This document shows positions 13,181 to 63,844 of a stretch of 63,844 bases of DNA, piece by piece (within the stretch, counting starts at the first letter, position 1; each line of letters begins with the position of its first letter). Below the pieces are notes generated by a model. The model was not told the DNA's origin and did not search any database. It saw only the letters and a list, made by a program, of their open reading frames with translations. The stretch is from Alphaproteobacteria bacterium (GTDB lineage: Bacteria; Pseudomonadota; Alphaproteobacteria; Rs-D84; CACZYB01), in assembly GCA_051885355.1 (NCBI GenBank), contig JBJEXC010000011.1, positions 1 through 63,844 of the forward strand. The letters run 5' to 3'. The translations under genes and the position numbers were made by a program.

Positions 13181-13332
13181 ATTTTTCCCCTTATTCATTA
13201 AAAACAAATATATTTTATATCCTTTTACAGAATATACCAAATAAGAATAATATTTCCCCTATAATAATTGTAATAGAAATAGAAGTTTAGTCTTGACTTT
13301 AAAAGTAATATATCTTATTTTTACTACAGTTT

Positions 13333-16169: not shown

Positions 16170-16175
16170 ATCACA

Positions 16176-16206
16176 GAAAAATCCTCAGAATTTCTGGGGA
16201 TTTTTT
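16176..16206. terminator. Bidirectional rho-independent terminator between the array and cas2
   Basis: Stem AATCCTCAG / CTGGGGATT (9 bp, one G-U) with an A run upstream and T6 downstream. Confidence 0.7.
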
Positions 16207-16303
16207 AATTATTTCATAATAAAAATTTAACAAATTTATACTAATTTTTGATTCGTTTTTTTTATTTTTCTTTTACCGATTCGCAATATTATTATCCACA
16301 TTT

Positions 16304-17555: not shown

Positions 17556-17570
17556 TTTATACCTCTTTGG

Positions 17571-48131: not shown

Positions 48132-48139
48132 TAAAAATA

Positions 48140-48967
48140 TCAATTGTCATTATACCCCAAACCATTTCTAGTACATAAAGTGTCTTTCCACCATTGTTCT
48201 CTATCTATAATAATTTTATCACTTACTTTAGAATTAAATATATCTAATATTGAATACTGAAAATTTTTCTTTATATAATCAAATCCTTTTTCATTTACAA
48301 TTTTTTTTAAGATTTTATTTCCTCCATGCCCATTATCGACATAATTTTTCCATCTTCCAAGTAACGCTTCATTTCCATATGCAGATCCCACATATAATTT
48401 ACCATTATTTTTATCTGTTATTAAATATACCGCTTTTTGATTTTTAAAAGCATTTATCCAATCTATCTTATTTTTCTCCAATATATTTTTTAATTCAATA
48501 TATGATAAACACACATTATCATAACCTTTAAATTCTTTTCCATCATAAGGAGTTGGCAAAATATTAGTTACAATAAGTTTGTCTAAACAGTTATTTGCAG
48601 TAAGACATTGTTGTTGACTCGTTTTATGAAAATTTATAATAATTCTTCCAAAAAATGGTTTATATTCATCTAATTCAGTCCCCTCAAAAGAAATTCCATT
48701 TTTAATCTTTAAATCTTTTGTAACCTTTTTTATTGTTGTTAATAAATGTGTATCTGCATTTAATTCTAATAAAGATATGGCAATTTGTCCCTCTTTAAAA
48801 TTAGCATTATAAGTTCTTCCAAACAAATAATTTATATTAACTATATCTGGATTTTCCACATACTTATCTACTATGTCTTTTTCTGAATAATAATTATTAA
48901 ATTTTATTTTAGTAATATTAACCTGATCTTTAGTCAAATGAAGTATATCATTAAGTTTTATATCCAT
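48140..48967 (-). CDS. GIY-YIG nuclease-domain protein with about 170-aa N-terminal domain of unknown function
   Basis: KAVYLITDKNNGKLYVGSAYG...LLGRWKNY... is a GIY-YIG core. Confidence 0.75.
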   Translation of the reverse strand: MDIKLNDILHLTKDQVNITKIKFNNYYSEKDIVDKYVENPDIVNINYLFGRTYNANFKEGQIAISLLELNADTHLLTTIKKVTKDLKIKNGISFEGTELDEYKPFFGRIIINFHKTSQQQCLTANNCLDKLIVTNILPTPYDGKEFKGYDNVCLSYIELKNILEKNKIDWINAFKNQKAVYLITDKNNGKLYVGSAYGNEALLGRWKNYVDNGHGGNKILKKIVNEKGFDYIKKNFQYSILDIFNSKVSDKIIIDREQWWKDTLCTRNGLGYNDN

Positions 48968-49293
48968 TTTCTTTCCTATATGTTTAATATATTTTAAGTA
49001 TCAATACACATTACTAAATATAATAATATAACTAAAAGAATAAAATCACAACTATTTCTTCAGCATATTTATAATTTTAAAATAAACAAACATAGAATAT
49101 TCAAAATTTAACCATAAATAATTATAGAAACTTCATTTTTACATTCCTATAAATGTAATTTCTAACATTTTTAGGTTCCAATAAATGTAATTTTTTTTAC
49201 ATTTTAGTTTGATACAATATATTTTTTATGAAAAATAACAAAACTGTCCTTTATATATATAATAATAACTACTTCAAAATAAGTTAAAGATAC

Positions 49294-50643
49294 TTAATTT
49301 TCAAGCCTCATTAACCAATTAAGAACATTTTGACGCTTTATTCCATTTATATCTTCACTACCAATATCCATTGACAATATATATTTTTTATAGTTATCAT
49401 TTATTTCTTTTAATGGGCGAAGTTCTCTATTCAATGTATCTGTAGATTCATTAACATAATATGCAACTTGATAATATTCTACAATATTATCTTTTTTAGC
49501 TACAAAATCAACTTCTATTGAAACTCGTTCTGTTTTACCTTCTTTATTCTTTATATACTTAGATATTTGACCAAAGGAAACTTTATAACCTCTTCTTAAT
49601 AATTCTAAATATACAAGGTTCTCCAGCATATGACCTTTATCTTCAGTATACTTTCTGTTAGCAAGTAAAGTATTTCTTAAACCTATATCAACAACAAAAT
49701 ATTTTGAATTACCATTTAATATTTGCTTTCCTTTTATGTTATATCTTTTACATTCATATAATAAGTAACTATCCAATAAACCTTTTATATATTTTGATAT
49801 ATCTGGAACAGATATTTTTATTCCCGTATTTTTAAGAGCATTTGCTATTCCTCTTAAAGATGTTTCACTTCCTATATTATTGAATATATATAAAATTACA
49901 TTCTCTAAATTTTTAGAATTTTTTATATTAAATCTTTTTATTATATCCTTTTGTAAAGTATTGTTATAAACAACATCTCTAAGGTAATCTTCTATCATCT
50001 GTCTATCCCAAGATAAATTAACAGTTTGAGGAAAACCACTATTTTGAATATATTTTAAATATATGTCATTTATACTATCTTTAGTTAATACTTCTTGTTT
50101 TGATTTACCATTGTTTTCATTTGTCAAAAGATAAGCTCCATAGTATTCAGCAAATGAATAAGGTTGCATTTTTATTTCAACATATCTACCCCCAAAGAAA
50201 TTAGAAAGATCACTTGAGAACATATATGCATTTGAACCAGTTAGATATACATCAACATTATCTTGCAAACGTAAAGTATTTGCTACCTGTTGCCAATTAT
50301 TAAGAAGTTGTATTTCATCTATAAATACATAATTCATTTTATTTGGTTGAATTTTACTCATAATAAAATTAAGCAATGTTTCAAAACTATCCAAGAAACC
50401 ATCCTTATTCAAAGACAATCCTATTTCTTGAACTTTTAGTTGGTCTTCAAGGTTTATACTTATTATTTGGTCTTTTGTTATCTTCTTTTCTTCTAATAAT
50501 TTGTTTTGAAATATTTCCAAAAGTTTGGACTTACCGCAACGTCTTACACCTGTGATTATTTTCACTAAATCAGGTGAATTACTCCATTTCTCTAGTTTTT
50601 GGATATATTCATTCCTGTAAAATAAATTTTTATCGTAAGGCAT
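49294..50643 (-). CDS. AAA-type ATPase (AAA_14 + DUF4143 architecture)
   Basis: P-loop GVRRCGKSKLL, Walker B VFIDEIQ and a C-terminal DUF4143-like region. Start at MPYDKN. Confidence 0.8.
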   Translation of the reverse strand: MPYDKNLFYRNEYIQKLEKWSNSPDLVKIITGVRRCGKSKLLEIFQNKLLEEKKITKDQIISINLEDQLKVQEIGLSLNKDGFLDSFETLLNFIMSKIQPNKMNYVFIDEIQLLNNWQQVANTLRLQDNVDVYLTGSNAYMFSSDLSNFFGGRYVEIKMQPYSFAEYYGAYLLTNENNGKSKQEVLTKDSINDIYLKYIQNSGFPQTVNLSWDRQMIEDYLRDVVYNNTLQKDIIKRFNIKNSKNLENVILYIFNNIGSETSLRGIANALKNTGIKISVPDISKYIKGLLDSYLLYECKRYNIKGKQILNGNSKYFVVDIGLRNTLLANRKYTEDKGHMLENLVYLELLRRGYKVSFGQISKYIKNKEGKTERVSIEVDFVAKKDNIVEYYQVAYYVNESTDTLNRELRPLKEINDNYKKYILSMDIGSEDINGIKRQNVLNWLMRLEN

Positions 50644-50883
50644 TTTAACCTCCATAATGCTTTTCCCTTTAATTATATTACGATTTTGTGTAAAGTCAAT
50701 ATTTTATTTGAAATTTCTAAACAATTTTATGTATATACACACTTTTGTTTAAAAAATTTATAATAATTTTAAAATAACAGATAATATTTCTTATACCACA
50801 TTTTCTCTTAAAAGTCAAGAACAAAATACAAACATTATTTTCCCCTTGCCTTATATAATCGGAGTTAGTATAATTTTCCCATT

Positions 50884-52563
50884 ATGAAAAAGGTATTTTT
50901 AGTTATTTTTGTATTTTGTGCGAGGGTGGTATTTTCGCAAACTCCTGAGCAGATTCAACGTTCACAACAGCAATTAATTGATGCAGGATTTAAGAGGCAG
51001 GAGTTAGAGCGTGCGATCAGCAAACCGTCCACTCAACAACCACAACAAAGTGAGGAAACTGCACCTCAAAAATCATCGCATTGCGTTCAAATCAACAGCA
51101 TTGAATTTGATGGAAATACAAAACTTTCCACCCACAAAATCAACAAACTTTCAAAACCTTTTCTTAATAAATGCCTGACGGTGGAGGAGATAAACAAACT
51201 TCTTAACACTATCACAAACGCCTATATTGACAAGGGTTTTATCACAAGCGGGGCTTACCTTAAAACTCCGCAAACCAAAACCAAAGACGGCATTTTGCAA
51301 ATCAAAATCATAGAGGGGACTATTGAAAAAATTAATGGGTTAAAGGAGGCGGAACGCATCTCCGCATTTCCAAATTTGCTTGGTAAAATTCTAAATCTTC
51401 GTGATATAGAGCAAGGGCTTGACCAGATGAATCGCCTTTCTTCCAACCACGCAACTATGGAAATAACCGCATCCGAAAATGCAAACGGAGCAAGCCAAAT
51501 CGTGATTAAAAACACCCCTGAAAGTCGCGTTTCCTATAACACTTACACCGACAATCTCGGCTCCAAATCCACGGGTCAATACAGGGCTGGTGTCAACTTC
51601 GGCATTGACAATATGTTGGGCGTCAACGACCAATTAAACATAGGCTACACAAACTCACTTACCGAACATTACGGTGATAAAAATTCACACTCCGCAAGCA
51701 TAGGTTTTTCTGTGCCATTCGGGTATTGGACCTTCACAAACAACACCTCCTACTCCTACTATAAAACCAATGTAAAACTTCCGATAAGCAGGGAAAAATT
51801 ATACTCCTTCGGCGACAGCTGGACTGACAATTTTTCCGTGGAACGTTTGCTTGCCAGAGGGCAAAAGTATAAGGTTTCCGCATTGGTCGGATTATCATAC
51901 AAGGAAAACGATAACTACACAAAGGTCCTTGACATACTCACAAAAAACGAGGTATCAAGCAGGCATCTTTCAAACATAGAATACGCCTTGCCAACGACAA
52001 TTTATTTTGACCGAGGCGTCATATTCGCAAAGCCATCTTTTGTGAACAGAGTAAAACTTTTCGGGAGTTTAGAGGACGATGGAACCTTCCAACAAAAGGC
52101 TCAATTTGAGGCATACAAACTTTACCTTTACACAGGTTTCAATTTTGGTTTTGTGAATTTGGCAACCACCTTTGACGGTCAATACAGCCCTGATGAACTT
52201 TTCTCCTCCGACGGATTTTATATTGGAAGTGAAGCATCGGTCAGAGGTTTTGCTAACGAAGGTTTAACCGGGGACAGTGGCTTTTACATAAGGAACGATT
52301 TGAAGTTTAATTTGGCGGATATTTTTAAAAGTCAGAATGTGTTTTTGAGAGATTTTAGCCCAAGCATTTTCTTTGATTACGGTTTTGTAAAAACCAATAA
52401 CGATGATGAAAAATCGGAGCTTTCAAGTATGGGTGCAAAAATAAATTACAGATATAAGATAGTGGATTTTTCCACCACCTACGCCCACCCGTTGAAAAAA
52501 GAAACTGAAATGTCCGGCACCCCCGAAACCTACTTCACGATTTCAATCAATGGAAGGTTTTAG
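50884..52563 (+). CDS. ShlB/FhaC/HecB-family two-partner-secretion outer-membrane transporter (TpsB)
   Basis: Signal peptide, POTRA-type region (VQINSIEFDGNTKLS...ITNAYIDKGFITSGAYL...ILQIKIIEGTIEKI), a beta-barrel-type C-terminal half and a terminal F. Confidence 0.9.
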   Translation: MKKVFLVIFVFCARVVFSQTPEQIQRSQQQLIDAGFKRQELERAISKPSTQQPQQSEETAPQKSSHCVQINSIEFDGNTKLSTHKINKLSKPFLNKCLTVEEINKLLNTITNAYIDKGFITSGAYLKTPQTKTKDGILQIKIIEGTIEKINGLKEAERISAFPNLLGKILNLRDIEQGLDQMNRLSSNHATMEITASENANGASQIVIKNTPESRVSYNTYTDNLGSKSTGQYRAGVNFGIDNMLGVNDQLNIGYTNSLTEHYGDKNSHSASIGFSVPFGYWTFTNNTSYSYYKTNVKLPISREKLYSFGDSWTDNFSVERLLARGQKYKVSALVGLSYKENDNYTKVLDILTKNEVSSRHLSNIEYALPTTIYFDRGVIFAKPSFVNRVKLFGSLEDDGTFQQKAQFEAYKLYLYTGFNFGFVNLATTFDGQYSPDELFSSDGFYIGSEASVRGFANEGLTGDSGFYIRNDLKFNLADIFKSQNVFLRDFSPSIFFDYGFVKTNNDDEKSELSSMGAKINYRYKIVDFSTTYAHPLKKETEMSGTPETYFTISINGRF

Positions 52564-52565
52564 AA

Positions 52566-52627
52566 GCATTTACACTTGATGTGAAAGTGAAGAGGAGGAT
52601 AAGGATATAGGTGAGGATGTTAGTCAT
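52566..52627 (-). pseudogene. Stand-alone remnant of the cassette leader (MTNILTYILILLFTFTSSVNAS), no toxin body
   Basis: A sixth copy of the conserved leader block. Homology stops 3-7 nt from the tpsB stop codon. Confidence 0.7.
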
Positions 52628-52637
52628 TTTTCTATTC

Positions 52638-53132
52638 TTACAATTTAAAAATAATATAACTTTCATTATATACGAATATTTTTTCTAATATCATATCAAT
52701 ATTATTGATATTTATTTTTACTAAAAATTCTTTTATAAAACACAGAGCATCAAATTCATTTAATTTATATTTAATTCTACAATCTTTAACAACATCACAC
52801 AGATTTATTGAACGGATTTTTAATTCTTCCTCTAATAATTCAATTAAATCTCTTTCATTCAAATCATTATAAACAAAATGTAAATGATTAAAATTACATA
52901 AAGATAAATCTATATTTTTCCACAATTTTTGTAAAAAAATATCTCTAGGGATAATAAATTCTTTACCATTTTCCTGAGTTATTATATCCAGTAAAAGTTC
53001 TCTAAAATTTATTGAATATTTAAAATTCACATACTTTCCCTGATGAAAATATATTTCATTTGCCATAGTCAAAATTTCTTGTTTTTCATTTAACAATTTA
53101 ATAAACTGCAAAATAATTTCATTTTCTGTCAT
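52638..53132 (-). CDS. Immunity-like small protein (164 aa)
   Basis: Second small ORF after toxin ORF 53586-54596. AAGGAAA Shine-Dalgarno; no motif recognised. Confidence 0.5.
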   Translation of the reverse strand: MTENEIILQFIKLLNEKQEILTMANEIYFHQGKYVNFKYSINFRELLLDIITQENGKEFIIPRDIFLQKLWKNIDLSLCNFNHLHFVYNDLNERDLIELLEEELKIRSINLCDVVKDCRIKYKLNEFDALCFIKEFLVKININNIDMILEKIFVYNESYIIFKL

Positions 53133-53181
53133 ATTTTATTTCCTTACTTATATCCACTATTTCTACTTACTACAAAATTAA

Positions 53182-53466
53182 TTAAATATTATCAAGTAAA
53201 TCTTTTAAATCAATGACATCTTCTTCAATTATAAAACTCCTATTTAAATTATCCAAAAATTCTAACCCAAATTTTAAGGATTCTGGATTTATAAAAATTC
53301 TGTAATTAGAATCATTTATACCTGTAAAATCTGTTAACAAATAAATATTTTTACCATTTATATTGCACATTTTTAACGGAATTTTATGAGAAAAATACCA
53401 ATCTTTTAAATGGGATTCTGGTAATTTTTCTTCTTGCTCTTTTATAAATTCTTCAATATTTTCCAT
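53182..53466 (-). CDS. Immunity-like small protein (94 aa)
   Basis: Starts 9 nt after the stop of the frameshift-restored toxin frame (TAA at 53476-53478). Confidence 0.5.
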   Translation of the reverse strand: MENIEEFIKEQEEKLPESHLKDWYFSHKIPLKMCNINGKNIYLLTDFTGINDSNYRIFINPESLKFGLEFLDNLNRSFIIEEDVIDLKDLLDNI

Positions 53467-53585
53467 TTTCTATCCTTACTTTTTTATAGTATCTGTTGTG
53501 TATATAGGACCTGATTTATAAGTAGCTTTACCATTTTCAAAAATTTCCACATGTGTATGAGGAGTACTATGAGGATGAGGATTAT

Positions 53586-54596
53586 TTAAATCAAATCTAA
53601 CCTTTTTAGTAATATTACTTCTTGACTCATAAAAACAGTATCTCCTGATTTATTTTTTATTACCTTAACGTTATTTCCTAAAAATTCTTCTATATCATTA
53701 GCAATTTTATCAATCTTCTTAGAGTTTATACCAGAGTTACCACTCTTCGCTCCAACCTCTTCCATTGTAGTCATATTTTTATTAGATGCAACATTTGTTT
53801 TCATTGACGAGTATAAACCATATACGCCTATACTCATATTAACTGTATTACCTGCCATATCCCAGGTCATATCTGAATTATTCATATACTGACCTGAGAA
53901 GTTCTCATAATAACCATATTCATTTTTTCCCTGATATAACATATAGCCATCTTCTGCAAACCCTGTTAAACCCATTGATGTATAGCCAATACCTGAAACT
54001 AAATTACTACCACCAACAGTAAAACCTGAAGATACAAGACCTAATCCATTCTTTGCAGTAGAATACATCAACTGATTTTTATTTACTTTTCCATTTTCTG
54101 TATAATACATTCCATTACTATCTGGACCAGTTTTCAAACTTGCTATATTACTTCCTAAATTTTGAGCACTTTTACCTGCAGTATATGCTGTCCAAGCCCA
54201 CATTCCTAGTTTTACTGCTCCTATCACAAGAGGAGGAATATTATCCCTATTCTCTACCCTACTCCAATCTATCGTATTCCCTATTACATAAGATGAATTG
54301 TTATCCACGCTCCAATTACCCAAACTGGTATCTTTTCCGTTTATCCATAGACTGTCGGTATATGCTCCTATGAAGTTATTACCAAGATACTTTGCGAAAT
54401 CTTCATTTGAGCCATATATTGCATGACCTACTTCATGACCAAATACTCCCAATCCTTTTTCTGTATTTCCATTTATATATAAATCATTTAGGTATATATC
54501 GTGGGTATCTTTATCGTGGTGTTGTATATAGCAAGCGTTTACACTTGATGTGAAAGAGAAAAGGAGGATAAGGATATAGGTGAGGAAGTTAGTCAT
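53586..54596 (-). CDS. Leader-bearing polymorphic toxin cassette T5 (HExxH module + variable C-terminus; apparently frameshifted near the 3' end)
   Basis: Leader MTNFLTYILILLFSFTSSVNAC, then HDKDTHDIY...FGHEVGHAIYGS...WSRVENRDN, then a unique region. A second frame continues to 53476. Confidence 0.7.
   Translation of the reverse strand: MTNFLTYILILLFSFTSSVNACYIQHHDKDTHDIYLNDLYINGNTEKGLGVFGHEVGHAIYGSNEDFAKYLGNNFIGAYTDSLWINGKDTSLGNWSVDNNSSYVIGNTIDWSRVENRDNIPPLVIGAVKLGMWAWTAYTAGKSAQNLGSNIASLKTGPDSNGMYYTENGKVNKNQLMYSTAKNGLGLVSSGFTVGGSNLVSGIGYTSMGLTGFAEDGYMLYQGKNEYGYYENFSGQYMNNSDMTWDMAGNTVNMSIGVYGLYSSMKTNVASNKNMTTMEEVGAKSGNSGINSKKIDKIANDIEEFLGNNVKVIKNKSGDTVFMSQEVILLKRLDLI
54248..54551. repeat. 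304-bp perfect direct repeat, copy 1 (copy 2 at 55838-56141)
   Basis: Every 10-mer block was checked by eye at a constant offset of 1590 bp. Confidence 0.9.
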
Positions 54597-55161
54597 TTTT
54601 TAGAAGTAATTCATTTATATCCAAATTTAATTTTTTTAATAAAATATCTTCATTATCATAAAATAATTTATCAATTAAATTATCTTTTTTTAATTCATTT
54701 AAAACATATATTAAAAAACCTACTATTGTTATAGTATTTAATTTAAAATTATTTATCCCATCATTTAAAATAGTATTTAAGTTTATTTTTAAATTTTTAT
54801 CCCTTATATCTTTAAATAAATATATATATTCTTTAATACTAATTCCTAAAACAGAACTATACTGGTTAATATTTATTTTTACAAAATACCTCCAATAATT
54901 TAATAAATTCAATATATTGCGAAGTGTATTATTCATTAATTGAGTATTAACAATTCTATTTTCTAATTCAGCATCCCCAAATTCTATATCTATAATAGAA
55001 ATCAAAGAGTTAACCTCATAAACAAACTCTTTTTCTGTTTCATTTATATTATCTATATTAAAATAATATTGAAAAATATCAGATAAACTATGTTGTTTAT
55101 TAAGAATAAAATTATACAAATTATTCATTTGATCTATAATATATTTTGATTCTATATACAT
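54589..55161 (-). CDS. Immunity-like protein (190 aa)
   Basis: Starts 8 nt after the T4 stop. Its last codons AAT GAC TAA overlap the T5 leader ATG. Confidence 0.55.
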   Translation of the reverse strand: MYIESKYIIDQMNNLYNFILNKQHSLSDIFQYYFNIDNINETEKEFVYEVNSLISIIDIEFGDAELENRIVNTQLMNNTLRNILNLLNYWRYFVKININQYSSVLGISIKEYIYLFKDIRDKNLKINLNTILNDGINNFKLNTITIVGFLIYVLNELKKDNLIDKLFYDNEDILLKKLNLDINELLLKND

Positions 55162-55169
55162 TTCTTTTC

Positions 55170-56186
55170 CTATTTCAAATTAGTTATTTTTCTACCTGGA
55201 ATAACTGTAATAACAGAACCTTCATTATTTGTTACTACATTTACTTTATTAATTTTATCATAATAATATATTTTTGTAGCAGAACTATTAATTTCTTTAG
55301 TTCCCGAAGAAATAGTATTTTCTACAACAGATGGAGAAAGACCTCTACCTTGCATTTGATCTAATGCATGTCCTGTATAATATCTGTCTAATATTGTCGT
55401 AGGTTTATTTGTCCCAGATTGTATAGATATAGGATTATTTATTACTCCAACAATTTCATGTGTTCCTGTTTTAGGTAATGGTTTTGCAACCTTTTCCGCT
55501 TCTCCAAGATATTTTAAATCTGTTCCTATACCACTAATATGATCTATGTCTAAAGCATCATCAACTTTACTCATTAACTTTGAACCAACCTTACTTACTG
55601 CTTTTCCTCCTACATATAATCCCCCTCCAATGATTAAATCTGTCGCTCCTTCTTTTATGTTCCCTCCAGCTGTATATATCTTACCGTCTACTATCGGATC
55701 CTTATATTCTGTCTTACCCTTATATCCTTTCCCCTTTATCCATGCATATATCTTCCTTGCACTATCTTGGATTGAGTATACCTCTCCTGCTATTACTAAA
55801 GCTGTTATTGCCATACTAATAGGTTCAAAGTTGTCTTTATTCTCTACCCTACTCCAATCTATCGTATTCCCTATTACATAAGATGAATTGTTATCCACGC
55901 TCCAATTACCCAAACTGGTATCTTTTCCGTTTATCCATAGACTGTCGGTATATGCTCCTATGAAGTTATTACCAAGATACTTTGCGAAATCTTCATTTGA
56001 GCCATATATTGCATGACCTACTTCATGACCAAATACTCCCAATCCTTTTTCTGTATTTCCATTTATATATAAATCATTTAGGTATATATCGTGGGTATCT
56101 TTATCGTGGTGTTGTATATAGCAAGCGTTTACACTTGATGTAAAAGTGAAGAGTAGGATAAGTATATAGGTTAGAAAGTTAGTCAT
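55170..56186 (-). CDS. Leader-bearing polymorphic toxin cassette T4 (HExxH module, shared middle domain, RNase-like tip)
   Basis: Same leader and HExxH module (304 bp identical to T5), then VENKDN. The middle domain is shared with T0 and T1. The tip YYTGHALDQMQGRGLSPSVVENTI...GSVITVIPG resembles DUF4258/BECR-type RNase toxins. Confidence 0.7.
   Translation of the reverse strand: MTNFLTYILILLFTFTSSVNACYIQHHDKDTHDIYLNDLYINGNTEKGLGVFGHEVGHAIYGSNEDFAKYLGNNFIGAYTDSLWINGKDTSLGNWSVDNNSSYVIGNTIDWSRVENKDNFEPISMAITALVIAGEVYSIQDSARKIYAWIKGKGYKGKTEYKDPIVDGKIYTAGGNIKEGATDLIIGGGLYVGGKAVSKVGSKLMSKVDDALDIDHISGIGTDLKYLGEAEKVAKPLPKTGTHEIVGVINNPISIQSGTNKPTTILDRYYTGHALDQMQGRGLSPSVVENTISSGTKEINSSATKIYYYDKINKVNVVTNNEGSVITVIPGRKITNLK
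55838..56141. repeat. 304-bp perfect direct repeat, copy 2
   Basis: See 54248-54551. Confidence 0.9.
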
Positions 56187-56568
56187 TTAAGTTTAAATTA
56201 TATATACTATATTTATCATATAATGTTAAAGAAATTAAATATCTATCATTTCTAATAGAAGAAACAAAAGTTAAATATTTTTTCATCTCATCTATAGCTT
56301 CATTTATGCAAACATTATAATTCTTTTTTGCTATATCACACTTATATTCCCAATGGGTGAATCCTGTAACATCATAATCATATATATTTTCATCAATTTT
56401 TGTGAAAATTTCACCAAAAGCAATCAACAATTTATGTTCTTTTATAAAATCTATAATATCATCTACAATATCAATATAAAAACCTAGTTTATTACTATGA
56501 TAAGGTAATAGTGGATATACTTTATCTTGTAAATTTTCTTTTAAAAAAATTCTATATTCAACCTGCAT
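56179..56568 (-). CDS. Immunity-like protein (129 aa)
   Basis: AGGAG Shine-Dalgarno 9 nt after the T3 stop. Ends ...LND with a stop overlapping the T4 leader ATG. Confidence 0.55.
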   Translation of the reverse strand: MQVEYRIFLKENLQDKVYPLLPYHSNKLGFYIDIVDDIIDFIKEHKLLIAFGEIFTKIDENIYDYDVTGFTHWEYKCDIAKKNYNVCINEAIDEMKKYLTFVSSIRNDRYLISLTLYDKYSIYNLNLND

Positions 56569-56577
56569 TTTTATCTC

Positions 56578-58038
56578 CTAACGTAAATTTTTAGTTATTT
56601 TATTAGCTTCTTTAAATAATCTATGTGTTATAGTATTATTTCTAGGATCTAACACATATTCAAAAAATCCTTTATTCCCATTTTTAGTACCTTCTATAAT
56701 AGCTTTATAATATATATTATTATCTCCTCCTGTAAATTTAACCCAATCTTTTGGTTTTAATAATTTATCTATTAAAATAGGAAAATCATGATTATCACCT
56801 TTCCCAATTTTACTTAATACAGAGGAACTATATTTAAAATCATTAGCATCACCTTTAAATAACCCTCTAATACCTCCCTTAATACCTTTCACAAATGGTG
56901 CTATTCCCATTAATAAATTACCACCAATATCCATTGTACCATATATCTTTAAATTTGTCTCTAAATCTTCTGATGATATATGTTCTCCACTTGGTCTCAT
57001 ATATTCTCCATTACCTATATATCCTACATCAGCTATCGCTTTTGCCTCACCTCCTTTGTATGCTCCTACAGCTGCAATAATTACTCCTCCCACAAAAGTT
57101 ATCGTAACAGGCTCTAAATTATCCCTGTTCTCTACCTTACTCCAATCCATCGTATTCCCTATTACATAAGATGAATTGTTATCCACGCTCCAATTACCTA
57201 GACTGGTATCTTGTCCGTTTATCCATAGGCCGTCGGTATAGGCTCCTGTGAAGTTATTACCCAGATACTTTACGAAATCTTCATCTGAGCCGTATATTGC
57301 ATGACCTACTTCATGACCGAATACTTCCAATCCCTTTTCTGTATTTCCATTTATATACAAGTCATTTAGGTATATATCGTGGGTATCTTTATCGTGGGAA
57401 CCTCCTGTGATAACTCCTACCACTTTGTTGGTATTATCATTTACACCAAGTTCCATACCAGCAAAAGTTTTAACATTACCGATTTTTATATAATCGTCAT
57501 CGGTTTCATCTTTACCTGTATTATAGATACCAGCAATTTCATTTTTAAACATAGCAAGAGCTATATCTTTTTCTTCCACAGTTGCATCAATTTGACCAGA
57601 CAGAATCGCAACCGCTTCTTCACCACCGTTTGTATTCAATAGATTTGATATTGCAAGCTTAGATACTTCTTTGTATCTGATACCACTTAAAGCTTGGTTC
57701 AAAGTGACATCAGTCATAACTGCGTCATACAAATTAGTTGCTATATTTTCAATGAAACTCTCAGATACCTTGAAATCCTTCAATATCTTCTTTCTCCCCT
57801 CCCCACTAAACACCCTATTGTCTATAGTCATACTTCCATCCAAAGCACCAGTGATTTTATCCTTTGTAATTTCTTGAGCTCTTTCTACATCCCTGTTTAG
57901 TCCCTCTAAATCAGAGTTAGTTTCCCCTCCTACTGTTATATTACCTGGGCCTATTGTTGCGTGAGGAAGATAACAAGCACTTACACTTGATGTAAAAGTG
58001 AAGAATAGGATAAGGATATAGGTGAGAAAGTTAGTCAT
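56578..58038 (-). CDS. Leader-bearing polymorphic toxin cassette T3 (pre-toxin block + HExxH module + unique tip)
   Basis: Leader, then HATIGPGNITVGGETNSDLEGLNRDVERAQEITKDKITGALDGSMTIDNRVFSGEG, a linker, then HDKDTHDIY...HEVGH...VENRDN and a unique 180-aa C-terminus. Confidence 0.75.
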   Translation of the reverse strand: MTNFLTYILILFFTFTSSVSACYLPHATIGPGNITVGGETNSDLEGLNRDVERAQEITKDKITGALDGSMTIDNRVFSGEGRKKILKDFKVSESFIENIATNLYDAVMTDVTLNQALSGIRYKEVSKLAISNLLNTNGGEEAVAILSGQIDATVEEKDIALAMFKNEIAGIYNTGKDETDDDYIKIGNVKTFAGMELGVNDNTNKVVGVITGGSHDKDTHDIYLNDLYINGNTEKGLEVFGHEVGHAIYGSDEDFVKYLGNNFTGAYTDGLWINGQDTSLGNWSVDNNSSYVIGNTMDWSKVENRDNLEPVTITFVGGVIIAAVGAYKGGEAKAIADVGYIGNGEYMRPSGEHISSEDLETNLKIYGTMDIGGNLLMGIAPFVKGIKGGIRGLFKGDANDFKYSSSVLSKIGKGDNHDFPILIDKLLKPKDWVKFTGGDNNIYYKAIIEGTKNGNKGFFEYVLDPRNNTITHRLFKEANKITKNLR

Positions 58039-58789
58039 TTTTCATCAAAACTGAAAATCTTATAATCAAATCAGAAAACAATAAAGATTTAAAATCTTTT
58101 TCATCATAAATCTCTATATTACAATCTGATATCAATGTATCTTTGGTTAAGGTATCAAAATAATTTTGTAATATTTGTTGCTTCTCTTTGTTTTCATTAC
58201 CAATAGGAATAAATTTAATTTTATAATCATTTATTATAATATCCCCTAAATATATATTTTCAATTTTTTTCAAATAAATCTTTGTATCATTAAAAACAGA
58301 CTTTGCCATATTGTCACTATATAAGGAATATATATTACTTTGCATTTGAGAAGTATTTTTTCCATGATAATCCAACATATTTTTCTTTCTTCTACAAGTC
58401 TGATTTCTACTATATGTCTTCCATTCTAAAACTTTATCAGAATTATCTACTTTAAATATTCCATTTTGATCAAAACTAAGTATACTATGCCCAGTTCCTA
58501 TTTTCAAATCTTCCTCACTAAAAGAAGTAATCAATTTTTTTCTACTTTTATCTTCATAAATAAAATATCTGATATCTCGTCTATCCTGTAAAGATATATT
58601 AGGATTATAATCAAGATTTAAAATATCACCTTTTTTAAAATACAATACATTATTATATTTGAAGTAAGGAATATAAACAAAAATTTCATCATAATATAAA
58701 TTTTTAATTACAACAGGAAAAACTGGATATACAATATGAAAACAAGCAGTTAATACCAACAAAATACACATTATAAATATTTTCTTCAT
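58031..58789 (-). CDS. Immunity-like lipoprotein (252 aa)
   Basis: Start at MKKIFIMCILLVLTACF (lipobox LTAC), 1 nt after the T2 stop. Ends ...KND overlapping the T3 leader ATG. The longer ORF-track start (58978) overlaps T2 and is rejected. Confidence 0.55.
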   Translation of the reverse strand: MKKIFIMCILLVLTACFHIVYPVFPVVIKNLYYDEIFVYIPYFKYNNVLYFKKGDILNLDYNPNISLQDRRDIRYFIYEDKSRKKLITSFSEEDLKIGTGHSILSFDQNGIFKVDNSDKVLEWKTYSRNQTCRRKKNMLDYHGKNTSQMQSNIYSLYSDNMAKSVFNDTKIYLKKIENIYLGDIIINDYKIKFIPIGNENKEKQQILQNYFDTLTKDTLISDCNIEIYDEKDFKSLLFSDLIIRFSVLMKND

Positions 58790-58790
58790 T

Positions 58791-59648
58791 TTAAATTCCC
58801 TTATATTTTTGATTTCCATATTTATCTGCATCGGCTTCAAATCTATTTTTTGATGTAAATGGATTATCCAATAAATACATAGGTAAAAATAGTGGCCCCC
58901 ACTGTCTATACTGTTGAACATGTCTATTTTCATGCTCTCTCCATATTGTCCAATCATCTTCTGTAGGAACCTCAACAAATAATCCTAACTCCCTTGCCTC
59001 TTTTACTCTTTCTGAATATTCATATGTACGATTAGCAATATCTATACCATCTCCATAATCATCAACATATCCAAAATAATTTACAACTTGTCCAAATGTT
59101 GTAGCCCAATCATTTAAATTTTCCTCTCCAAATAAACCATTTAACATATGAAACAAAGGATTTCCTATTATATTATGAATTCTATTTTCTTCATCATATT
59201 CATGTCTAGCTCCTAATAAAACTCCGATAGCTCCAATTGTAGCACCTATCATAGTATTTGGCAAGTTCCAAATATCTCCCAAAACTGTTAATGTATTCCC
59301 TACTAAATTCGTATGATCCTCTATTATACTCCTCCAGCCCTCTCCGCTAAATACCCTATTGTCTATAGTCATACTTCCATCCAAAGCACCAGTGATTTTA
59401 TCCTTTGTAATTTCTTGAGCTCTTTCTACATCCCTGTTTAGTCCCTCTAAATCAGAGTTAGTTTCCCCTCCTACTGTTATATTACCTGAGCCTATTGTAG
59501 CGTGAGTTATTTGTTCCTTTTCCGAACCCTTGTCCTTCATAGTTATAGTTGTTGAACCGTTTGGATGGATGGAGTAGTAATAGCAAGCATTTACACTTGA
59601 TGTGAAAGAGAAAATAAGAATGAGGATATAGGTAAGGAAGTTAATCAT
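58791..59648 (-). CDS. Leader-bearing polymorphic toxin cassette T2 (pre-toxin block + HExxH-containing tip)
   Basis: Leader MINFLTYILILIFSFTSSVNAC, a pre-toxin block 135 bp identical to T3, and a tip with NLPNTMIGATIGAIGVLLG and REHENRHVQQYRQWGPLF. Confidence 0.75.
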   Translation of the reverse strand: MINFLTYILILIFSFTSSVNACYYYSIHPNGSTTITMKDKGSEKEQITHATIGSGNITVGGETNSDLEGLNRDVERAQEITKDKITGALDGSMTIDNRVFSGEGWRSIIEDHTNLVGNTLTVLGDIWNLPNTMIGATIGAIGVLLGARHEYDEENRIHNIIGNPLFHMLNGLFGEENLNDWATTFGQVVNYFGYVDDYGDGIDIANRTYEYSERVKEARELGLFVEVPTEDDWTIWREHENRHVQQYRQWGPLFLPMYLLDNPFTSKNRFEADADKYGNQKYKGI

Positions 59649-60218
59649 TTATTTTAAGAAAAAATCTTTGTAATTATTATAAATATTTATAATCCCAACA
59701 TATGGATTAAAATCTAAATTTACTTCTACTTCTTTTTTTAAGTTCTTATAAAAATTATAAAAATTATTTATATATTGCTTATAAGTATTTCCAAAAATAC
59801 CCTTTAAATTTTCTTCTTTTCCAATCCATATATGATAATAGTCATTATCATTAAAAATCATTACTTTTTCATCACTTGATATTAAAACGAAATAAAGAAA
59901 ATGAAGAGTTAAATATATATCAGAAGGTAATATATCTGGATAGTCATTAAGATATATCATTTCATTATCTCCCAATAAAGATATTATTGCTTTTTGATTA
60001 ATAAAATATCTATCAAATAATAATCTTTCACTATCTTCATCAAAAATATTTTCAACAAAAGGTATAATTTTCAAATTATTTTGAATAAGATATTTTCTAT
60101 CCAATTCCCAATAGGAATTTTCTGAAGTTTTACATTCAATTGTTATATTTTTACACAAATTTAAAATATATTTACTTTTTTTCTTAAAAAATATATCTCT
60201 AATATCTAATAACATCAT
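59649..60218 (-). CDS. Immunity-like protein (189 aa)
   Basis: AGGAGAA Shine-Dalgarno 5 nt after the T1 stop. Its stop directly abuts the T2 ATG. Confidence 0.55.
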   Translation of the reverse strand: MMLLDIRDIFFKKKSKYILNLCKNITIECKTSENSYWELDRKYLIQNNLKIIPFVENIFDEDSERLLFDRYFINQKAIISLLGDNEMIYLNDYPDILPSDIYLTLHFLYFVLISSDEKVMIFNDNDYYHIWIGKEENLKGIFGNTYKQYINNFYNFYKNLKKEVEVNLDFNPYVGIINIYNNYKDFFLK

Positions 60219-60223
60219 TTCTC

Positions 60224-61252
60224 CTATTTATATCTAATATCAATATACTTTCCCAAATTATAATCATATACTTCCAAAGTATCAACCCCTTTCAAGGAAG
60301 TACTTTTATGTAAATTTATAATTTCTCCATCTCTTGTACTTCCAATTATAGCATTATTTTTATGGATAGGTTCAACAACATTTATAGAGCTAAAATCGTC
60401 TAAAGCATTTCCTCCCTTCTCATAATTAATAACTTTTTTAGGACTATTTTGAATTGTTGATAGTTTAGAATCCTTCAAAATATTATCAAAACTATTAACT
60501 TTATCAACTGGTTTTAAATCAGTTCCTATACCACTAATATGATCTATATCTAATGCATCATCTACCTTACTCATTAACTTAGAACCAACCTTATTTACAG
60601 CTTTTCCTCCTACATATAATCCCCCTCCAATGATTAAATCTGTCGCTCCTTCCTTTAAATTACCTTCAGCTGTATATATTTTCCCATTTATTGGATCAAC
60701 ATAAGTTGTTTTTCCTTTATATCCTTCTCCATCAAACCATGCATATATTTTCCTTGCACTATCTTGGATTGAGTAAATACTTGCTGCAATGGCTAATCCA
60801 GTCAATATAAAACCATCTCCTCTACCCTCTCCTGTCATAGTATTATGCAAATCCGATATAAGTCCAAGACTTCCCTCCCTTATCGTATCCTCTCCGCTAT
60901 GAGATTCTAACCACTCATCTCCTCCCATTCCATTAGTATTCTCGTTACCATAGTTCTTTAGTCCGAAGATTCCTGCTCCTGTATCTCCTCTATTCTTCGC
61001 AGTAATCTCATTTGCATTATGTTCTTCAAAGTTTGTAGTTTCGTGATACAACGCATTCATCAAAGCTTTTGGATCGGACATATCTATATTTGCCATATTA
61101 AGCGTTATATTTTTTACTTCGCTGTCGTTACTTTGATATGCAAAACCTATTATATTTCCATTTTCTGTTGTTGTATGTGGAACATAGTAGACATTTACAC
61201 TTGATGTAAATGTGAAGAGGAGAATGAGGATATAGGTGAGGAGTTTAGTCAT
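60224..61252 (-). CDS. Leader-bearing polymorphic toxin cassette T1
   Basis: Leader MTKLLTYILILLFTFTSSVNVYY, then about 650 bp identical to the partial ORF at the window edge, then a unique 110-aa tip. Confidence 0.75.
   Translation of the reverse strand: MTKLLTYILILLFTFTSSVNVYYVPHTTTENGNIIGFAYQSNDSEVKNITLNMANIDMSDPKALMNALYHETTNFEEHNANEITAKNRGDTGAGIFGLKNYGNENTNGMGGDEWLESHSGEDTIREGSLGLISDLHNTMTGEGRGDGFILTGLAIAASIYSIQDSARKIYAWFDGEGYKGKTTYVDPINGKIYTAEGNLKEGATDLIIGGGLYVGGKAVNKVGSKLMSKVDDALDIDHISGIGTDLKPVDKVNSFDNILKDSKLSTIQNSPKKVINYEKGGNALDDFSSINVVEPIHKNNAIIGSTRDGEIINLHKSTSLKGVDTLEVYDYNLGKYIDIRYK
60513..61161. repeat. About 650-bp direct repeat, copy 1 (identical by eye to 62808-63457)
   Basis: Line-by-line comparison of T1 and T0 DNA. 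Confidence 0.85.
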
Positions 61253-61691
61253 TTATTTTTTTTAATGTAAAAACACAATCTTTTATATTCATTGTTTTAT
61301 ATATAATATTATTATTTAATTTCACAGAGTATTTCACTATATCATTCGGATATTTATCATGAGTTAAAAAATTATTATAAGAAGAATATAAATCATTAAA
61401 TAATAGTTTACATTTTTTATCACAATATAATTCAACTTTATAACTATTAAGAGGATAATCAACAAAACAATATTTTAATGATTTATGAAAATTATCAAGA
61501 ACTGTTATATTCTTAGCCCATATATCTTCATCAAGAAAATCATCTTCCCAACGCATAATTGGAAAAGATTTTTCATTAACAAAATCTAATATTTTTTTAT
61601 AATTATACACTAAATCATTAGGATTTAAAATATCTTGCACTTTATCTTTAATATTGTAAGTTTTATCTTTTTTTTTATTAATACCAAACAT
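61245..61691 (-). CDS. Immunity-like protein (148 aa)
   Basis: ATG preceded by AGGTGATTAAT. Ends ...IND overlapping the T1 leader ATG. Confidence 0.5.
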   Translation of the reverse strand: MFGINKKKDKTYNIKDKVQDILNPNDLVYNYKKILDFVNEKSFPIMRWEDDFLDEDIWAKNITVLDNFHKSLKYCFVDYPLNSYKVELYCDKKCKLLFNDLYSSYNNFLTHDKYPNDIVKYSVKLNNNIIYKTMNIKDCVFTLKKIND

Positions 61692-61700
61692 ATTAATCAC

Positions 61701-62051
61701 CTAATCAAATTCTACAATATCATTAAAATCTCTAACAACATATAAATAATGTTCATTATTATTTCTTATTAAAACGGCTTCTGGTCCATTAAAACCTGTA
61801 TCACTCATATCAATCTCAATATAATTATTATTGTTTAAGATAAGTTTTATATAAGTATTTTCTTTTTCTTCTATTTCTATTATGCTTTTCCCAATTAAAT
61901 TTTCCAATCTATCATTAAATATGTATGTATTAACTATTTCAATATTAAATAAATTATTCAAACCCAAAGTAATATCCTTATCAATTCCAATATAAATGCC
62001 AACAATACTTTGATTTAACAATTTGTCTTTTAATTCACTTTTTATATACAT
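61701..62051 (-). CDS. Immunity-like protein (116 aa), paralog of 62111-62461
   Basis: Shares a C-terminal pattern with its neighbour (...PEA..L.....N..YL....FN[DE]I..F). Confidence 0.5.
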   Translation of the reverse strand: MYIKSELKDKLLNQSIVGIYIGIDKDITLGLNNLFNIEIVNTYIFNDRLENLIGKSIIEIEEKENTYIKLILNNNNYIEIDMSDTGFNGPEAVLIRNNNEHYLYVVRDFNDIVEFD

Positions 62052-62110
62052 TTTTATCTCCTTTATTTTATTTAATAGGAAAATTACATTAGATTTCCTG
62101 ATTTTAACTT

Positions 62111-62461
62111 CTACCTAAAATCATATATTTCATTAAAATTATTGTAAATAAGATAAATATTATTTCCCTCAGATTTTAAAGAAAAGGCTTCTGGGGTATC
62201 ACAAGAATCGGCATCTAATCCAATAAAGAATTCCAAAGAGTTATCTAAAACAAATTTAATTTTTTCATCCAAACAAGCCTGTATTTTTATTATGTTATGA
62301 TTTTTACATTCTTCTATACCAAAAGGGAAATAACACTTGTTATTGACTGAAAGATAAATATCTTTATCAAATTCAAAATCATAAACAGAAATATTATCTT
62401 TTATAGAGATCAATCGTTTATTTAAAAGGATATTATTTAAACGTTTTTCAATTTCTAACAT
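62111..62461 (-). CDS. Immunity-like protein (116 aa), cognate position for the edge toxin ORF
   Basis: The ATG lies 1 nt after the stop of 62463-63844 and is preceded by AGGTGAT. Confidence 0.55.
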   Translation of the reverse strand: MLEIEKRLNNILLNKRLISIKDNISVYDFEFDKDIYLSVNNKCYFPFGIEECKNHNIIKIQACLDEKIKFVLDNSLEFFIGLDADSCDTPEAFSLKSEGNNIYLIYNNFNEIYDFR

Positions 62462-62462
62462 A

Positions 62463-63844
62463 TTAATCACCTATTTTTATAGAAAAATGCCCTTTCATTC
62501 CTTCATCTATTTGTTTTAATGTATAAGGATCAATACCTGCGTTACTTTTTGGTAAAGAATACTTTACATACCCATTAGGATATGCAGGTATTTTACCATT
62601 ATTTTTAGCTTCCACAGGATTCATAATTCTCATATCAACTTGTGTTCCTTTTATTGTACCACCTTCTAATATAACGCCTTTCCCATTATTTGCAAGGTTT
62701 AGTGTATAATTTTCTGGAACAGGAAATACTTGACCTGAAGAATCCACAAAGAAATTTGTTCCTGTCTTAGGTAATGGTTTTGCGACCTTCTCCGCTTCTC
62801 CAAGATATTTTAAATCAGTTCCTATACCACTAATATGATCTATATCTAATGCATCATCTACCTTACTCATTAACTTAGAACCAACCTTATTTACAGCTTT
62901 TCCTCCTACATATAATCCCCCTCCAATGATTAAATCTGTCGCTCCTTCCTTTAAATTACCTTCAGCTGTATATATTTTCCCATTTATTGGATCAACATAA
63001 GTTGTTTTTCCTTTATATCCTTCTCCATCAAACCATGCATATATTTTCCTTGCACTATCTTGGATTGAGTAAATACTTGCTGCAATGGCTAATCCAGTCA
63101 ATATAAAACCATCTCCTCTACCCTCTCCTGTCATAGTATTATGCAAATCCGATATAAGTCCAAGACTTCCCTCCCTTATCGTATCCTCTCCGCTATGAGA
63201 TTCTAACCACTCATCTCCTCCCATTCCATTAGTATTCTCGTTACCATAGTTCTTTAGTCCGAAGATTCCTGCTCCTGTATCTCCTCTATTCTTCGCAGTA
63301 ATCTCATTTGCATTATGTTCTTCAAAGTTTGTAGTTTCGTGATACAACGCATTCATCAAAGCTTTTGGATCGGACATATCTATATTTGCCATATTAAGCG
63401 TTATATTTTTTACTTCGCTGTCGTTACTTTGATATGCAAAACCTATTATATTTCCATCTACATTTGCAAGTTTTAAATCTCCACTAAATCCGCCACCTTC
63501 TGCTACAAAATCAGCAACTTGTTGTAATATGGCTTGAGCTTCTGGAGAATCAAAATCAGTCATTCCGTTAAGAGCCACAACTAAATCCCTACGTTTCTCC
63601 TGCAACTCTGTCATCTGCCTGTCTTGCTTTACATAGTCTGCAATCGTATCTATCAAATCCTTCGTTTTATCAGTAATTGCATTTTCTATCGCCTTTACTA
63701 CTATATTGTTTCTCAACCCACTTCCTATTTGAACAAGGTTATCCCCTATCTCCTCATGTTGCTTAACTATCTCCGCTCTTCCCTCTCCACTAAATACCCT
63801 ATTGTCTATAGTCATACTTCCATCCAAAGCACCAGTGATTTTAT
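62463..63844 (-). CDS. C-terminal part of a toxin-bearing exoprotein T0 (5' end outside the window)
   Basis: The frame is open to the window edge, where it reads KITGALDGSMTIDNRVFSGEG, identical to T2 and T3. It then has a linker, a degenerate zincin-like module (LYHETTNFEEH), the shared middle domain and a unique tip. Confidence 0.8.
   Translation of the reverse strand, partial: KITGALDGSMTIDNRVFSGEGRAEIVKQHEEIGDNLVQIGSGLRNNIVVKAIENAITDKTKDLIDTIADYVKQDRQMTELQEKRRDLVVALNGMTDFDSPEAQAILQQVADFVAEGGGFSGDLKLANVDGNIIGFAYQSNDSEVKNITLNMANIDMSDPKALMNALYHETTNFEEHNANEITAKNRGDTGAGIFGLKNYGNENTNGMGGDEWLESHSGEDTIREGSLGLISDLHNTMTGEGRGDGFILTGLAIAASIYSIQDSARKIYAWFDGEGYKGKTTYVDPINGKIYTAEGNLKEGATDLIIGGGLYVGGKAVNKVGSKLMSKVDDALDIDHISGIGTDLKYLGEAEKVAKPLPKTGTNFFVDSSGQVFPVPENYTLNLANNGKGVILEGGTIKGTQVDMRIMNPVEAKNNGKIPAYPNGYVKYSLPKSNAGIDPYTLKQIDEGMKGHFSIKIGD
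62808..63457. repeat. About 650-bp direct repeat, copy 2
   Basis: See 60513-61161. Confidence 0.85.

Follow-up and report, generated by a model that had tools for sequence, protein, structure and literature searches.

Why does every toxin cassette of an orphan array begin with the same short peptide? The window analyzed here appears to be the whole of a 63,844-nt contig (JBJEXC010000011.1; 30% GC) whose relatives are metagenome-assembled genomes (MAGs) of uncultured gut "Alphaproteobacteria bacterium". It contains a contact-dependent-inhibition (CDI)-type locus with an orphan toxin/immunity array. Five toxin open reading frames (ORFs) of this array, cassettes T1 to T5, open with a leader block of about 69 nt, and a sixth copy of the block stands beside the transporter gene tpsB/cdiB. 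Classical orphan cdiA-CT modules, which begin at the pre-toxin motif, have neither an initiation codon for translation nor a signal sequence (Poole et al. 2011, PMC3150448; review 2022, PMC9086364). An earlier note on this DNA contrasted the cassettes with such modules, and the contrast stands, as all five have an ATG and a conserved hydrophobic leader under purifying selection. We consider it probable that the leader is the tpsB signal peptide, brought onto the toxins by duplication, that the leader-toxins are translated by coupling and exported through Sec, and that the leader doubles as a homology arm. What is new is the assignment, by sequence comparison, of the leader to the TpsB/CdiB signal peptide and of the sixth copy to an old tpsB start.

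Leader copies

A degenerate pattern of the leader peptide has exactly six matches on the minus strand of the window, against none expected from 100 shuffles. Their ATGs, at 61252, 59648, 58038, 56186, 54596, and 52627, confirm the six copies of about 69 nt listed in the earlier note. Aligned, the copies form a sharply bounded block that runs from 2 to 3 nt 5′ of the ATG through codon 23, and the five full copies open intact ORFs of 285 to 486 amino acids (aa). Seven nucleotide differences had been claimed between the copies at 54596 and 56186; we recovered them as six synonymous changes (TTC/TTT, CTC/CTA, ATC/ATA, CTC/CTA, CTT/CTC, and TTC/TTT) and one Ser/Thr replacement (TCT/ACT). A common peptide had also been ascribed to all copies. 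This is right for most, but the T5 copy at 61252 reads MTKLLTYILILLFTFTSSVNVYY (…SVNVYY), with Lys3, without Cys, and without Ala at −1. The T4 copy at 59648 reads MINFLTYILILIFSFTSSVNAC and begins MINF. The copy at 52627 comprises 21 leader codons followed by SKTFH and a stop; 1 nt separates it from where the convergent tpsB terminates.

Homologs of the cassette proteins in public assemblies mostly begin with the same leader peptide, and an nhmmer search gathered ~44 leader copies from 27 sequences. A strict DNA pattern of the leader gave no match in representative genomes, and a looser one led to a single Hadza-gut alphaproteobacterial MAG. Three matches to the leader pattern in JGI metagenomes lay at the C terminus of an unrelated ORF and were set aside as chance.

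Origin of the leader

Related loci place the leader on the transporter itself. In the relatives L008, L012, L013, and L016, the gene order on one strand is tpsA, immunity, (leader-toxin, immunity)n, tpsB, and the TpsB of these syntenic loci begins MTKLLTYIFILFFAFTSLVNA followed directly by QVPSDIQRHQQNLIDAGF…, that is, the leader and then Gln. Searching with the window TpsB returned ~21 clusters at 57 to 61% identity that begin with the leader or with the variant MNKFGFYFTAFISLATSVNA, the latter likewise followed by Gln; the variant is also found on toxins (L017:2322, P0289). Directly behind the leader, the mature part of leader-type TpsBs comes into alignment with that of the window TpsB (…SQTPEQIQR versus …AQVSSQIQR). 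Because this alignment begins right after the leader, the block is the predicted Sec signal peptide of the transporter, and homology shows it to correspond to the 5′ end of tpsB/cdiB, comprising the start codon and the Sec signal peptide of the outer-membrane protein. The likeness to TpsB/FhaC/ShlB signal peptides of sister lineages is residue for residue over the N-terminal 21 residues of TpsB; the difference is that here the peptide sits on toxin fragments and not on a POTRA/beta-barrel protein. An origin from the TpsA signal peptide was rejected, as full-length TpsA homologs begin MSSFSKIFQIFSKGFCKSLVFYFSFYLIFSPLFSFQAFAQ, which bears no evident relation to the leader (N termini compared visually).

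The earlier note had taken the sixth copy for a remnant toxin cassette. We instead read it as the stub of a former tpsB start: it retains 21 codons, adjoins tpsB, and recurs with the same junction in the closest relative, L001, where it again stands against a convergent tpsB (L001:13264, VNAS-stop). The assignment to an old tpsB start follows from the leader-type TpsBs of related loci, which carry the leader as their N terminus. The convergent tpsB of L001 has the same signal peptide as that of the window, MKKVFLVIFVFCARVVFSQ, and the same promoter-like TTGCCT-17-TATAAT 9 nt 5′ of its ATG. That the stub arose by simple inversion of tpsB could not be demonstrated, given that the window-type TpsB is just 57 to 61% identical to the leader type; allele replacement is equally possible.

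A history that would produce this arrangement starts from the ancestral order tpsA-cdiI-tpsB, with the tpsB ATG overlapping the immunity stop. Duplication or recombination events that broke within the 3′ pre-toxin/toxin part of tpsA and immediately behind the signal codons of tpsB would create junctions between leader and cdiA-CT. The outcome would be an array of leader-toxin and immunity units that ends in leader-tpsB, whose last unit would have shrunk to the 21-codon stub in the lineage of the window.

Two observations concern the convergent tpsB. Its signal peptide MKKVFLVIFVFCARVVFSQ is unrelated to the leader, and the point from which it is again homologous to leader-type TpsB is exactly the signal-peptide boundary, which looks like a modular exchange of signal peptides. 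The promoter-like site ending 9 nt 5′ of the ATG (window 50846-50884, plus strand; L001 ~14990-15040, minus strand) suggests a nearly leaderless mRNA.

Selection on the leader peptide

An indel-free alignment holds 34 copies: 29 borne by toxins (27 of them unique), 4 on tpsB, and the stub. For the 27 unique toxin-borne leaders, the ratio of nonsynonymous to synonymous substitution rates (dN/dS) is 0.10 at dS ~1.4, and among the 5 window copies it is 0.12; frame-shifted controls gave 1.0 and 4.5. Variable columns number 10, 6, and 19 of 20 at the successive codon positions, where nucleotide diversity stands at 4.1/1.0/9.3. Ser17 and Ser18 switch between the AGT and TCN codon families with serine kept. 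Thus, the purifying selection on a peptide that the earlier note had read from the window copies holds, with the same bias to synonymous sites, in the larger alignment.

The toxin-borne leaders also have states of their own, Thr/Ser14, Cys/Gly22, and Tyr23; the DNA-sampled tpsB copies have Ala14, Gln22, and Val/Ala23. Comparison of the window with the L001 toxin leaders gave a ratio of nonsynonymous to synonymous proportions of differences (pN/pS) of 0.17. Both loci hold the stub and no leader-type tpsB from which the cassette copies could be converted, which argues that selection acts directly on the copies in the cassettes.

Codon choice within the leaders is unusual. Third codon positions of all five window leaders are 30 to 50% C and 0% G, whereas the toxin bodies that follow them have 6 to 9% C there. 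Stretches rich in pyrimidines, such as ATCCTCCTCTTC, result. In other lineages, leader codons end in T or A instead. A constraint on the mRNA where ribosomes reinitiate and the codon usage of signal peptides are both possible causes.

Recombination at the leader

Identity profiles around the ATG are mosaic, with crossovers in or beside the leader. The copy at L007:10001 shares its upstream immunity gene and leader with L017:4499 and L021:3171 at 100% identity, and its toxin body at 74 to 84%. The reverse is found for L007:11843 and L017:5642 and for T2 and T1 of the window, where toxin bodies are 93 to 97% identical and upstream sequences are unrelated. The same immunity families stand directly 5′ of tpsB in one genome and 5′ of a toxin leader in others: the family of the window immunity candidate I5 (…YKDFFLKND) directly precedes tpsB in L012, and that of I3 does so in L016. 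This pattern agrees with an initial duplication that spanned the immunity-tpsB junction and later module exchange, in which the pre-toxin region would serve as upstream homology arm and the next leader as downstream arm.

The earlier note had set selection on a peptide against a role as DNA recombination site. Its positive half stands; the exclusion does not, as recombination breakpoints lie in or beside the leader, which would make it a homology arm too. A further alternative is that the block is primarily a DNA site (a site-specific recombination site or attC-like cassette boundary) or an RNA element, its ORF being incidental. The sharp 5′ boundary, the direct repeats at cassette boundaries, and the breakpoints at the block would suit such an element. 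Against it are the three-base periodicity, near-saturated synonymous divergence with a conserved peptide, and the failure of the shifted frames to show constraint. The array has no inverted repeat or recombinase gene, no recombinase gene lies beside it, and an Rfam search of the window matched nothing in the leader block and three tRNAs elsewhere. The codon-position pattern effectively refutes this explanation, leaving it next to no probability.

Type of signal

Signal-peptide features were scored by heuristic (Kyte–Doolittle hydropathy and the −3/−1 pattern). The leaders have a 12-aa hydrophobic core with a maximal hydropathy of 2.4 to 2.6, and T1 to T4 and the stub carry V-x-A at −3/−1 after residue 21. 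That the leader has no basic N-region, as the earlier note stated, is correct for T1 to T4. T5, in contrast, has Lys3, as do 22 of the 29 aligned toxin copies, so that Asn3 (AAC), found in T1 to T4 and the stub, is a lineage-specific replacement of the Lys3 (AAA) of most relatives.

The earlier note left open a signal or a lipoprotein leader. A signal peptide is favored by the homology to TpsB and the hydrophobic core, whereas a lipoprotein is poorly supported. If the leader were a signal peptidase II substrate, Cys22 would carry a lipid that anchors the toxins in the outer membrane or at the cell surface. Consistent with this, Cys follows V-N-A in 18 of 29 aligned toxin leaders and in four of the five window copies, the VSAC of T3 matches lipobox patterns, and two unrelated leaders of other lineages end near a Cys (LFAC, TLNC). 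However, VNAC itself fails both the PROSITE-like (PS51257) and the DOLOP lipobox patterns, with Asn at −2, so that T3 is the only match among the window copies. Cys22 is replaced in ~40% of copies, by Gly, Tyr, or Thr in DNA copies and by Asp in protein P0010, and it differs even between 95%-identical orthologous toxins (Gly at L007:11843, Cys at L017:5642); since the residue is replaceable even between orthologs, lipidation is not required, although some copies may be lipidated. Finally, the parent TpsB has Gln at +1 and is an outer-membrane beta-barrel, and must therefore be a signal peptidase I substrate. Lipid anchoring appears improbable to us; cleavage behind VNA by signal peptidase I is the better fit. 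The leader-toxin product would enter the Sec translocon and, like TpsB, would most likely be cut by signal peptidase I behind V-N-A, and cleavage would release a toxin fragment without the two-partner secretion (TPS) domain into the periplasm.

Probable translational coupling

Ribosomes that terminate at the stop of one bacterial gene can reinitiate at the start of an overlapping one. Of 44 leader copies, counting those on toxins and those on tpsB, ~40 have an upstream ORF of at least 100 aa whose stop lies 0, 1, 4, or 8 nt ahead of the leader ATG or inside the leader, in the forms TAAATG, ATGA, and AATGACTAA; the last occurs in the window where the small ORF 61245-61691 ends within the T5 leader with an 8-nt overlap. 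Unrelated immunity proteins all end …ND because the first eight nucleotides of the leader encode those residues. A Shine–Dalgarno-like motif is absent from ~38 of 44 leader copies, and all nine small window ORFs, the immunity candidates, have AGGAG, AGGTGA, or AAGGA at a proper distance. The cassettes had been described as independently translatable, which these overlaps and missing Shine–Dalgarno motifs do not bear out. They indicate instead that leader ATGs are translationally coupled to the immunity gene upstream. The array would then be a chain in which immunity genes initiate by themselves and leader ORFs, natively tpsB, are reinitiated by the terminating ribosome.

Toxin fusions in this and other lineages

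Among ~36 unique toxin-borne leaders, 31 run on in frame for 200 codons or more in this AT-rich, 30%-GC DNA; four open short ORFs and one has no start codon. The leader is joined to exoprotein C termini at 14 or more different junction points, all in frame, which precede ETGFGVSTS, SLHPNG, HATIG, the HExxH block, a hydrophobic helix, NRGxTGAGIF, and others. Random joining would put one-third of junctions in frame; as the junction events are not strictly independent, no probability was attached. Orthologous leader-toxin ORFs have dN/dS of 0.15 to 0.26 along their whole length, including 0.155 for the T3 toxin body compared with L001:10001. At L001:7867, the leader ATG has been lost and a GTG with AAGGAG 5′ of it is present.

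One cassette class has its leader cut inside the hydrophobic core (MTNLLTYIFLFSFFSFGF joined to NIDLTKPNELMN…; L012 7254, L013 15005 and 16520, L021 1627). Without the TSSVNA cleavage region, this class may form an uncleaved signal anchor.

Elsewhere, unrelated canonical signal peptides occupy the same position 5′ of the pre-toxin region: MLKKIFAFLLILFAC…GNITVGG twice in L005, MFKKLILLIGIILTLNC-AHATIGGG twice in L006, and the further leaders MIKKFIVFLFLSLFLVG-GFGMNTS… and MKKLLTTLLTIVFFQSQVFC…. L005, a distant lineage, also has a 365-aa ORF and a 72-aa fragment that begin with the first ~45 codons of its own TpsB (signal peptide and ~25 mature residues) before turning into unrelated sequence (12227-13324, 16056-16274, 17308-19176); this is an independent instance of fusion to the 5′ end of tpsB. 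Such recurrent acquisition of signal peptides points to export itself as the selected property. In L013, a Hadza-gut contig, tpsA is cut to a 268-aa TPS-domain ORF (7811-8617), and five leader-toxin cassettes and tpsB downstream are intact. L007 and L005 have intact arrays with no tpsA within 10 kb, and L007 has no tpsB within that distance either.

Alternative explanations

Taken together, the spare toxins are probably not silent but produced and sent to the periplasm. Several points weigh against this. T5 has lost the Ala at −1 (VNV), and four of the five window copies lack Lys or Arg in the n-region. Expression may be low, with leader ATGs that have no Shine–Dalgarno motif. Spells as a tpsB start, or gene conversion, could account for some of the peptide conservation. 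As the window spans just one contig of 64 kb, another TPS locus could also lie elsewhere in the genome. We also know of no route by which a fragment without the TPS domain could cross the outer membrane or enter a target cell. The opposite view, that the cassettes are silent spare parts, would make the leaders passive scars of cdiI-tpsB junction duplications, conserved by gene conversion from a real tpsB, and the toxins not meaningfully expressed. It would sit well with the tpsB origin of the leader, the crossovers there, the missing Shine–Dalgarno motifs, and window leaders that are closer to each other (85–93% identity to the stub) than to those of L001. We nevertheless judge it very improbable: toxin-borne leaders hold fixed states of their own, L012 toxin leaders differ from the tpsB leader of the same genome at ~18 to 20% of sites, the window/L001 comparison shows constraint with no leader-type tpsB in the locus, and all junction classes are in frame with starts kept, including the GTG with AAGGAG of L001:7867.

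If the products are exported, the fragments could be weapons, could reflect safe disposal and operon continuity, or both. On a reading without weapons, translation keeps the operon coupled, with no polarity on immunity genes or tpsB, export removes a dangerous protein, and the value of the array lies in its immunity genes and as a recombination reservoir. The distal position of tpsB in L012, L013, and L016, coupled to the preceding immunity gene, would make sense in this light, as would Shine–Dalgarno motifs on immunity genes and not on leader ORFs and the want of an evident outer-membrane export route. In the window and L001, however, tpsB is convergent with its own promoter, yet cassette ORFs are intact and the leader is conserved; the L007 array is intact with neither tpsB nor tpsA nearby, unrelated signal peptides have been acquired repeatedly elsewhere, and toxin bodies are under purifying selection. 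We regard the reading without weapons as unlikely. A bolder proposal, which we hold only tentatively and consider possible but doubtful, is that the cassettes are autonomous Sec-exported antibacterial toxins that act without a TpsA filament, by way of outer-membrane vesicles, surface display, or TPS-domain-independent handover to TpsB, and that they were created repeatedly by capture of cdiB or other signal peptides by cdiA-CT. If true, contact-dependent toxins would have had a way to evolve into secreted bacteriocin-like proteins, and the intact arrays with truncated or absent tpsA (L013, L007, L005) would be explained.

Comparison with known systems

Neisseria MafB proteins, which Jamet and coworkers are said to have described in 2015, are reportedly polymorphic toxins with Sec signals, downstream immunity genes, spare C-terminal cassettes, and an unclear outer-membrane route. 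They reportedly have an N-terminal domain of their own, DUF1020, unrelated to TPS exoproteins, and spare cassettes without signal peptides. The likeness to the present array is thus the Sec signal on polymorphic toxins, and the difference is that here each cassette carries one.

The array shares with orphan cdiA-CT/cdiI modules its tandem pairs of toxin fragment and immunity gene beside tpsA/tpsB, 5′ parts homologous to the pre-toxin region, Shine–Dalgarno motifs on immunity genes, and a mosaic makeup. It adjoins the tpsA(cdiA) 3′ end and tpsB(cdiB), the HATIG…DGSMTIDNRVFSGEG stretch of T3 and T4 is also present in the main gene, and small candidate immunity genes with their own initiation signals follow the toxins (nine ORFs with Shine–Dalgarno motifs). 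It differs in its start codon and its predicted tpsB-derived Sec signal peptide, and in that many junctions lie deep inside or beyond the pre-toxin region. We found no description of orphan toxins with a cdiB-derived or other signal peptide in the CDI/orphan full-text literature that we searched, which is not proof of absence. A lineage of uncultured gut Alphaproteobacteria thus appears to equip every cassette with the signal peptide of the transporter, as opposed to the silent reservoirs of textbooks. Export of the products would mean that CDI loci encode a second class of toxins, periplasmic or secreted and independent of TpsA, and the term "orphan" would then need redefinition.

Loci with the cdiAIB arrangement were reported to tend to be without orphan modules (Koskiniemi et al. 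2015, PMC4364669). In loci of this order, arrays could grow with the tpsB 5′ end as downstream arm, and duplication across the immunity-tpsB junction would automatically give a signal-peptide fusion. The Burkholderia-type order of exoprotein, immunity, and transporter genes on one strand, with extra ORFs before the transporter as in cdiAIB/bcpAIOB, is found in L012, L013, and L016; in the window and L001, by contrast, tpsB is convergent and has its own promoter-like site. BcpO, the sole described signal-bearing ORF between immunity and transporter genes, is a small conserved lipoprotein and not a toxin fragment (Anderson et al. 2012, PMC3415462), whereas the extra ORFs of the relatives are toxin fragments; no homology to BcpO was seen, although no search was aimed at it.

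Organization of the locus

On the minus strand, the tpsA/cdiA 3′ end is followed by three small ORFs and then by five larger ORFs, each with one or two small ORFs behind it; the array terminates at the convergent tpsB/cdiB (Table 1). The tpsA/cdiA fragment is homologous to TPS/Fil_haemagg_2 proteins of 2,200 to 2,400 aa.

Table 1. Features of the CDI-type locus in the window, in the order of the array. SD, Shine–Dalgarno.
Feature	Coordinates	Strand	Basis or remark
tpsA/cdiA exoprotein gene, 3′ end (pre-toxin region and C-terminal toxin)	62463..63844	−	Frame open to contig end
Three small ORFs, candidate immunity genes of main toxin	61245..62461 (62111-62461, 61701-62051, 61245-61691)	−	SD on each
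Cassette T5, 342-aa toxin ORF fused in frame to leader 61184-61252 (MTKLLTYILILLFTFTSSVNVYY)	60224..61252	−	ORF and pattern match
Immunity candidate I5, 189 aa	59649..60218	−	SD AGGAG; stop immediately 5′ of T4 leader ATG
Cassette T4, leader 59580-59648 (MINFLTYILILIFSFTSSVNAC), full pre-toxin region (HATIG…DGSMTIDNRVFSGEG), toxin with HENRH motif, 285 aa	58791..59648	−	ORF and pattern match
Immunity candidate I4, lipoprotein signal MKKIFIMCILLVLTAC	58031..58789	−	Stop overlaps T3 leader by 8 nt
Cassette T3, leader 57970-58038 (…SVSAC), pre-toxin region, HExxH block, toxin, 486 aa	56578..58038	−	ORF and pattern match
Immunity candidate I3, 129 aa	56179..56568	−	SD AGGAG; ends …NLNLND within T2 leader
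Cassette T2, leader 56118-56186 joined directly to HExxH block, hydrophobic helix, toxin with weak DUF4258 match, 338 aa	55170..56186	−	ORF and pattern match
Immunity candidate I2, 190 aa	54589..55161	−	SD AGGA; ends …LLLKND within T1 leader
Cassette T1, leader 54528-54596, HExxH block, toxin of no assigned family, 336 aa	53586..54596	−	ORF and pattern match
Two small ORFs, immunity candidates of T1	52638..53466 (53182-53466, 52638-53132)	−	Both with SD
Leader stub, codons 1-21 (MTNILTYILILLFTFTSSVNA)	52565..52627	−	Cut exactly at signal-peptide boundary; 1 nt from convergent tpsB stop
tpsB/cdiB (ShlB/FhaC family; ShlB, POTRA_2, POTRA_3 domains), signal peptide MKKVFLVIFVFCARVVFSQ	50884..52563	+	Convergent with array
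Promoter-like TTGCCT-17-TATAAT, ends 9 nt 5′ of tpsB ATG	50846..50874	+	Consensus match only; conserved in L001

For at least 300 nt, the T5 body and the 3′ region of the main cdiA match at 100% identity (60512-60811 equals 62808-63107), which indicates a very recent duplication or gene conversion. Beyond the identical stretch, the two copies diverge at the extreme C terminus.

Searches of Pfam, NCBIfam, and PDB sequences with the toxins and immunity proteins gave nothing usable beyond the weak DUF4258 match of T2. An AlphaFold2 model of T1 from a 14-sequence alignment was unusable (mean predicted local distance difference test score 36). A scan of the array for promoters and terminators found 90 candidates against 84 expected in shuffles of this 30%-GC DNA, which is not above chance.

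The lipoprotein signal of candidate I4 implies that T4 acts in the periplasm, and with the HENRH motif it suggests that T4 is a periplasm-acting metallopeptidase toxin with I4 as its periplasmic immunity protein. Lipoprotein-type immunity ORFs resembling I4 are present in L001, L007, and L016 as well.

T1, T2, and T3 have in common the HExxH block (GVFGHEVGHAIYGS), in which G53, H54, E55, G57, and H58 are invariant across 14 homologs and which is followed by a hydrophobic helix and then the variable toxin. The block has no Pfam, NCBIfam, or PDB match; given its motif, a zincin-like domain that acts as a releasing or pre-toxin peptidase is one possibility.

Beyond tpsB, positions 47235-50655 hold an AbiEii nucleotidyltransferase toxin gene (47235-48131), a gene for a GIY-YIG domain protein (48140-48967), and one for an AAA_14/DUF4143 ATPase (49294-50655), a defense/toxin-antitoxin-like neighborhood at the edge of the array.

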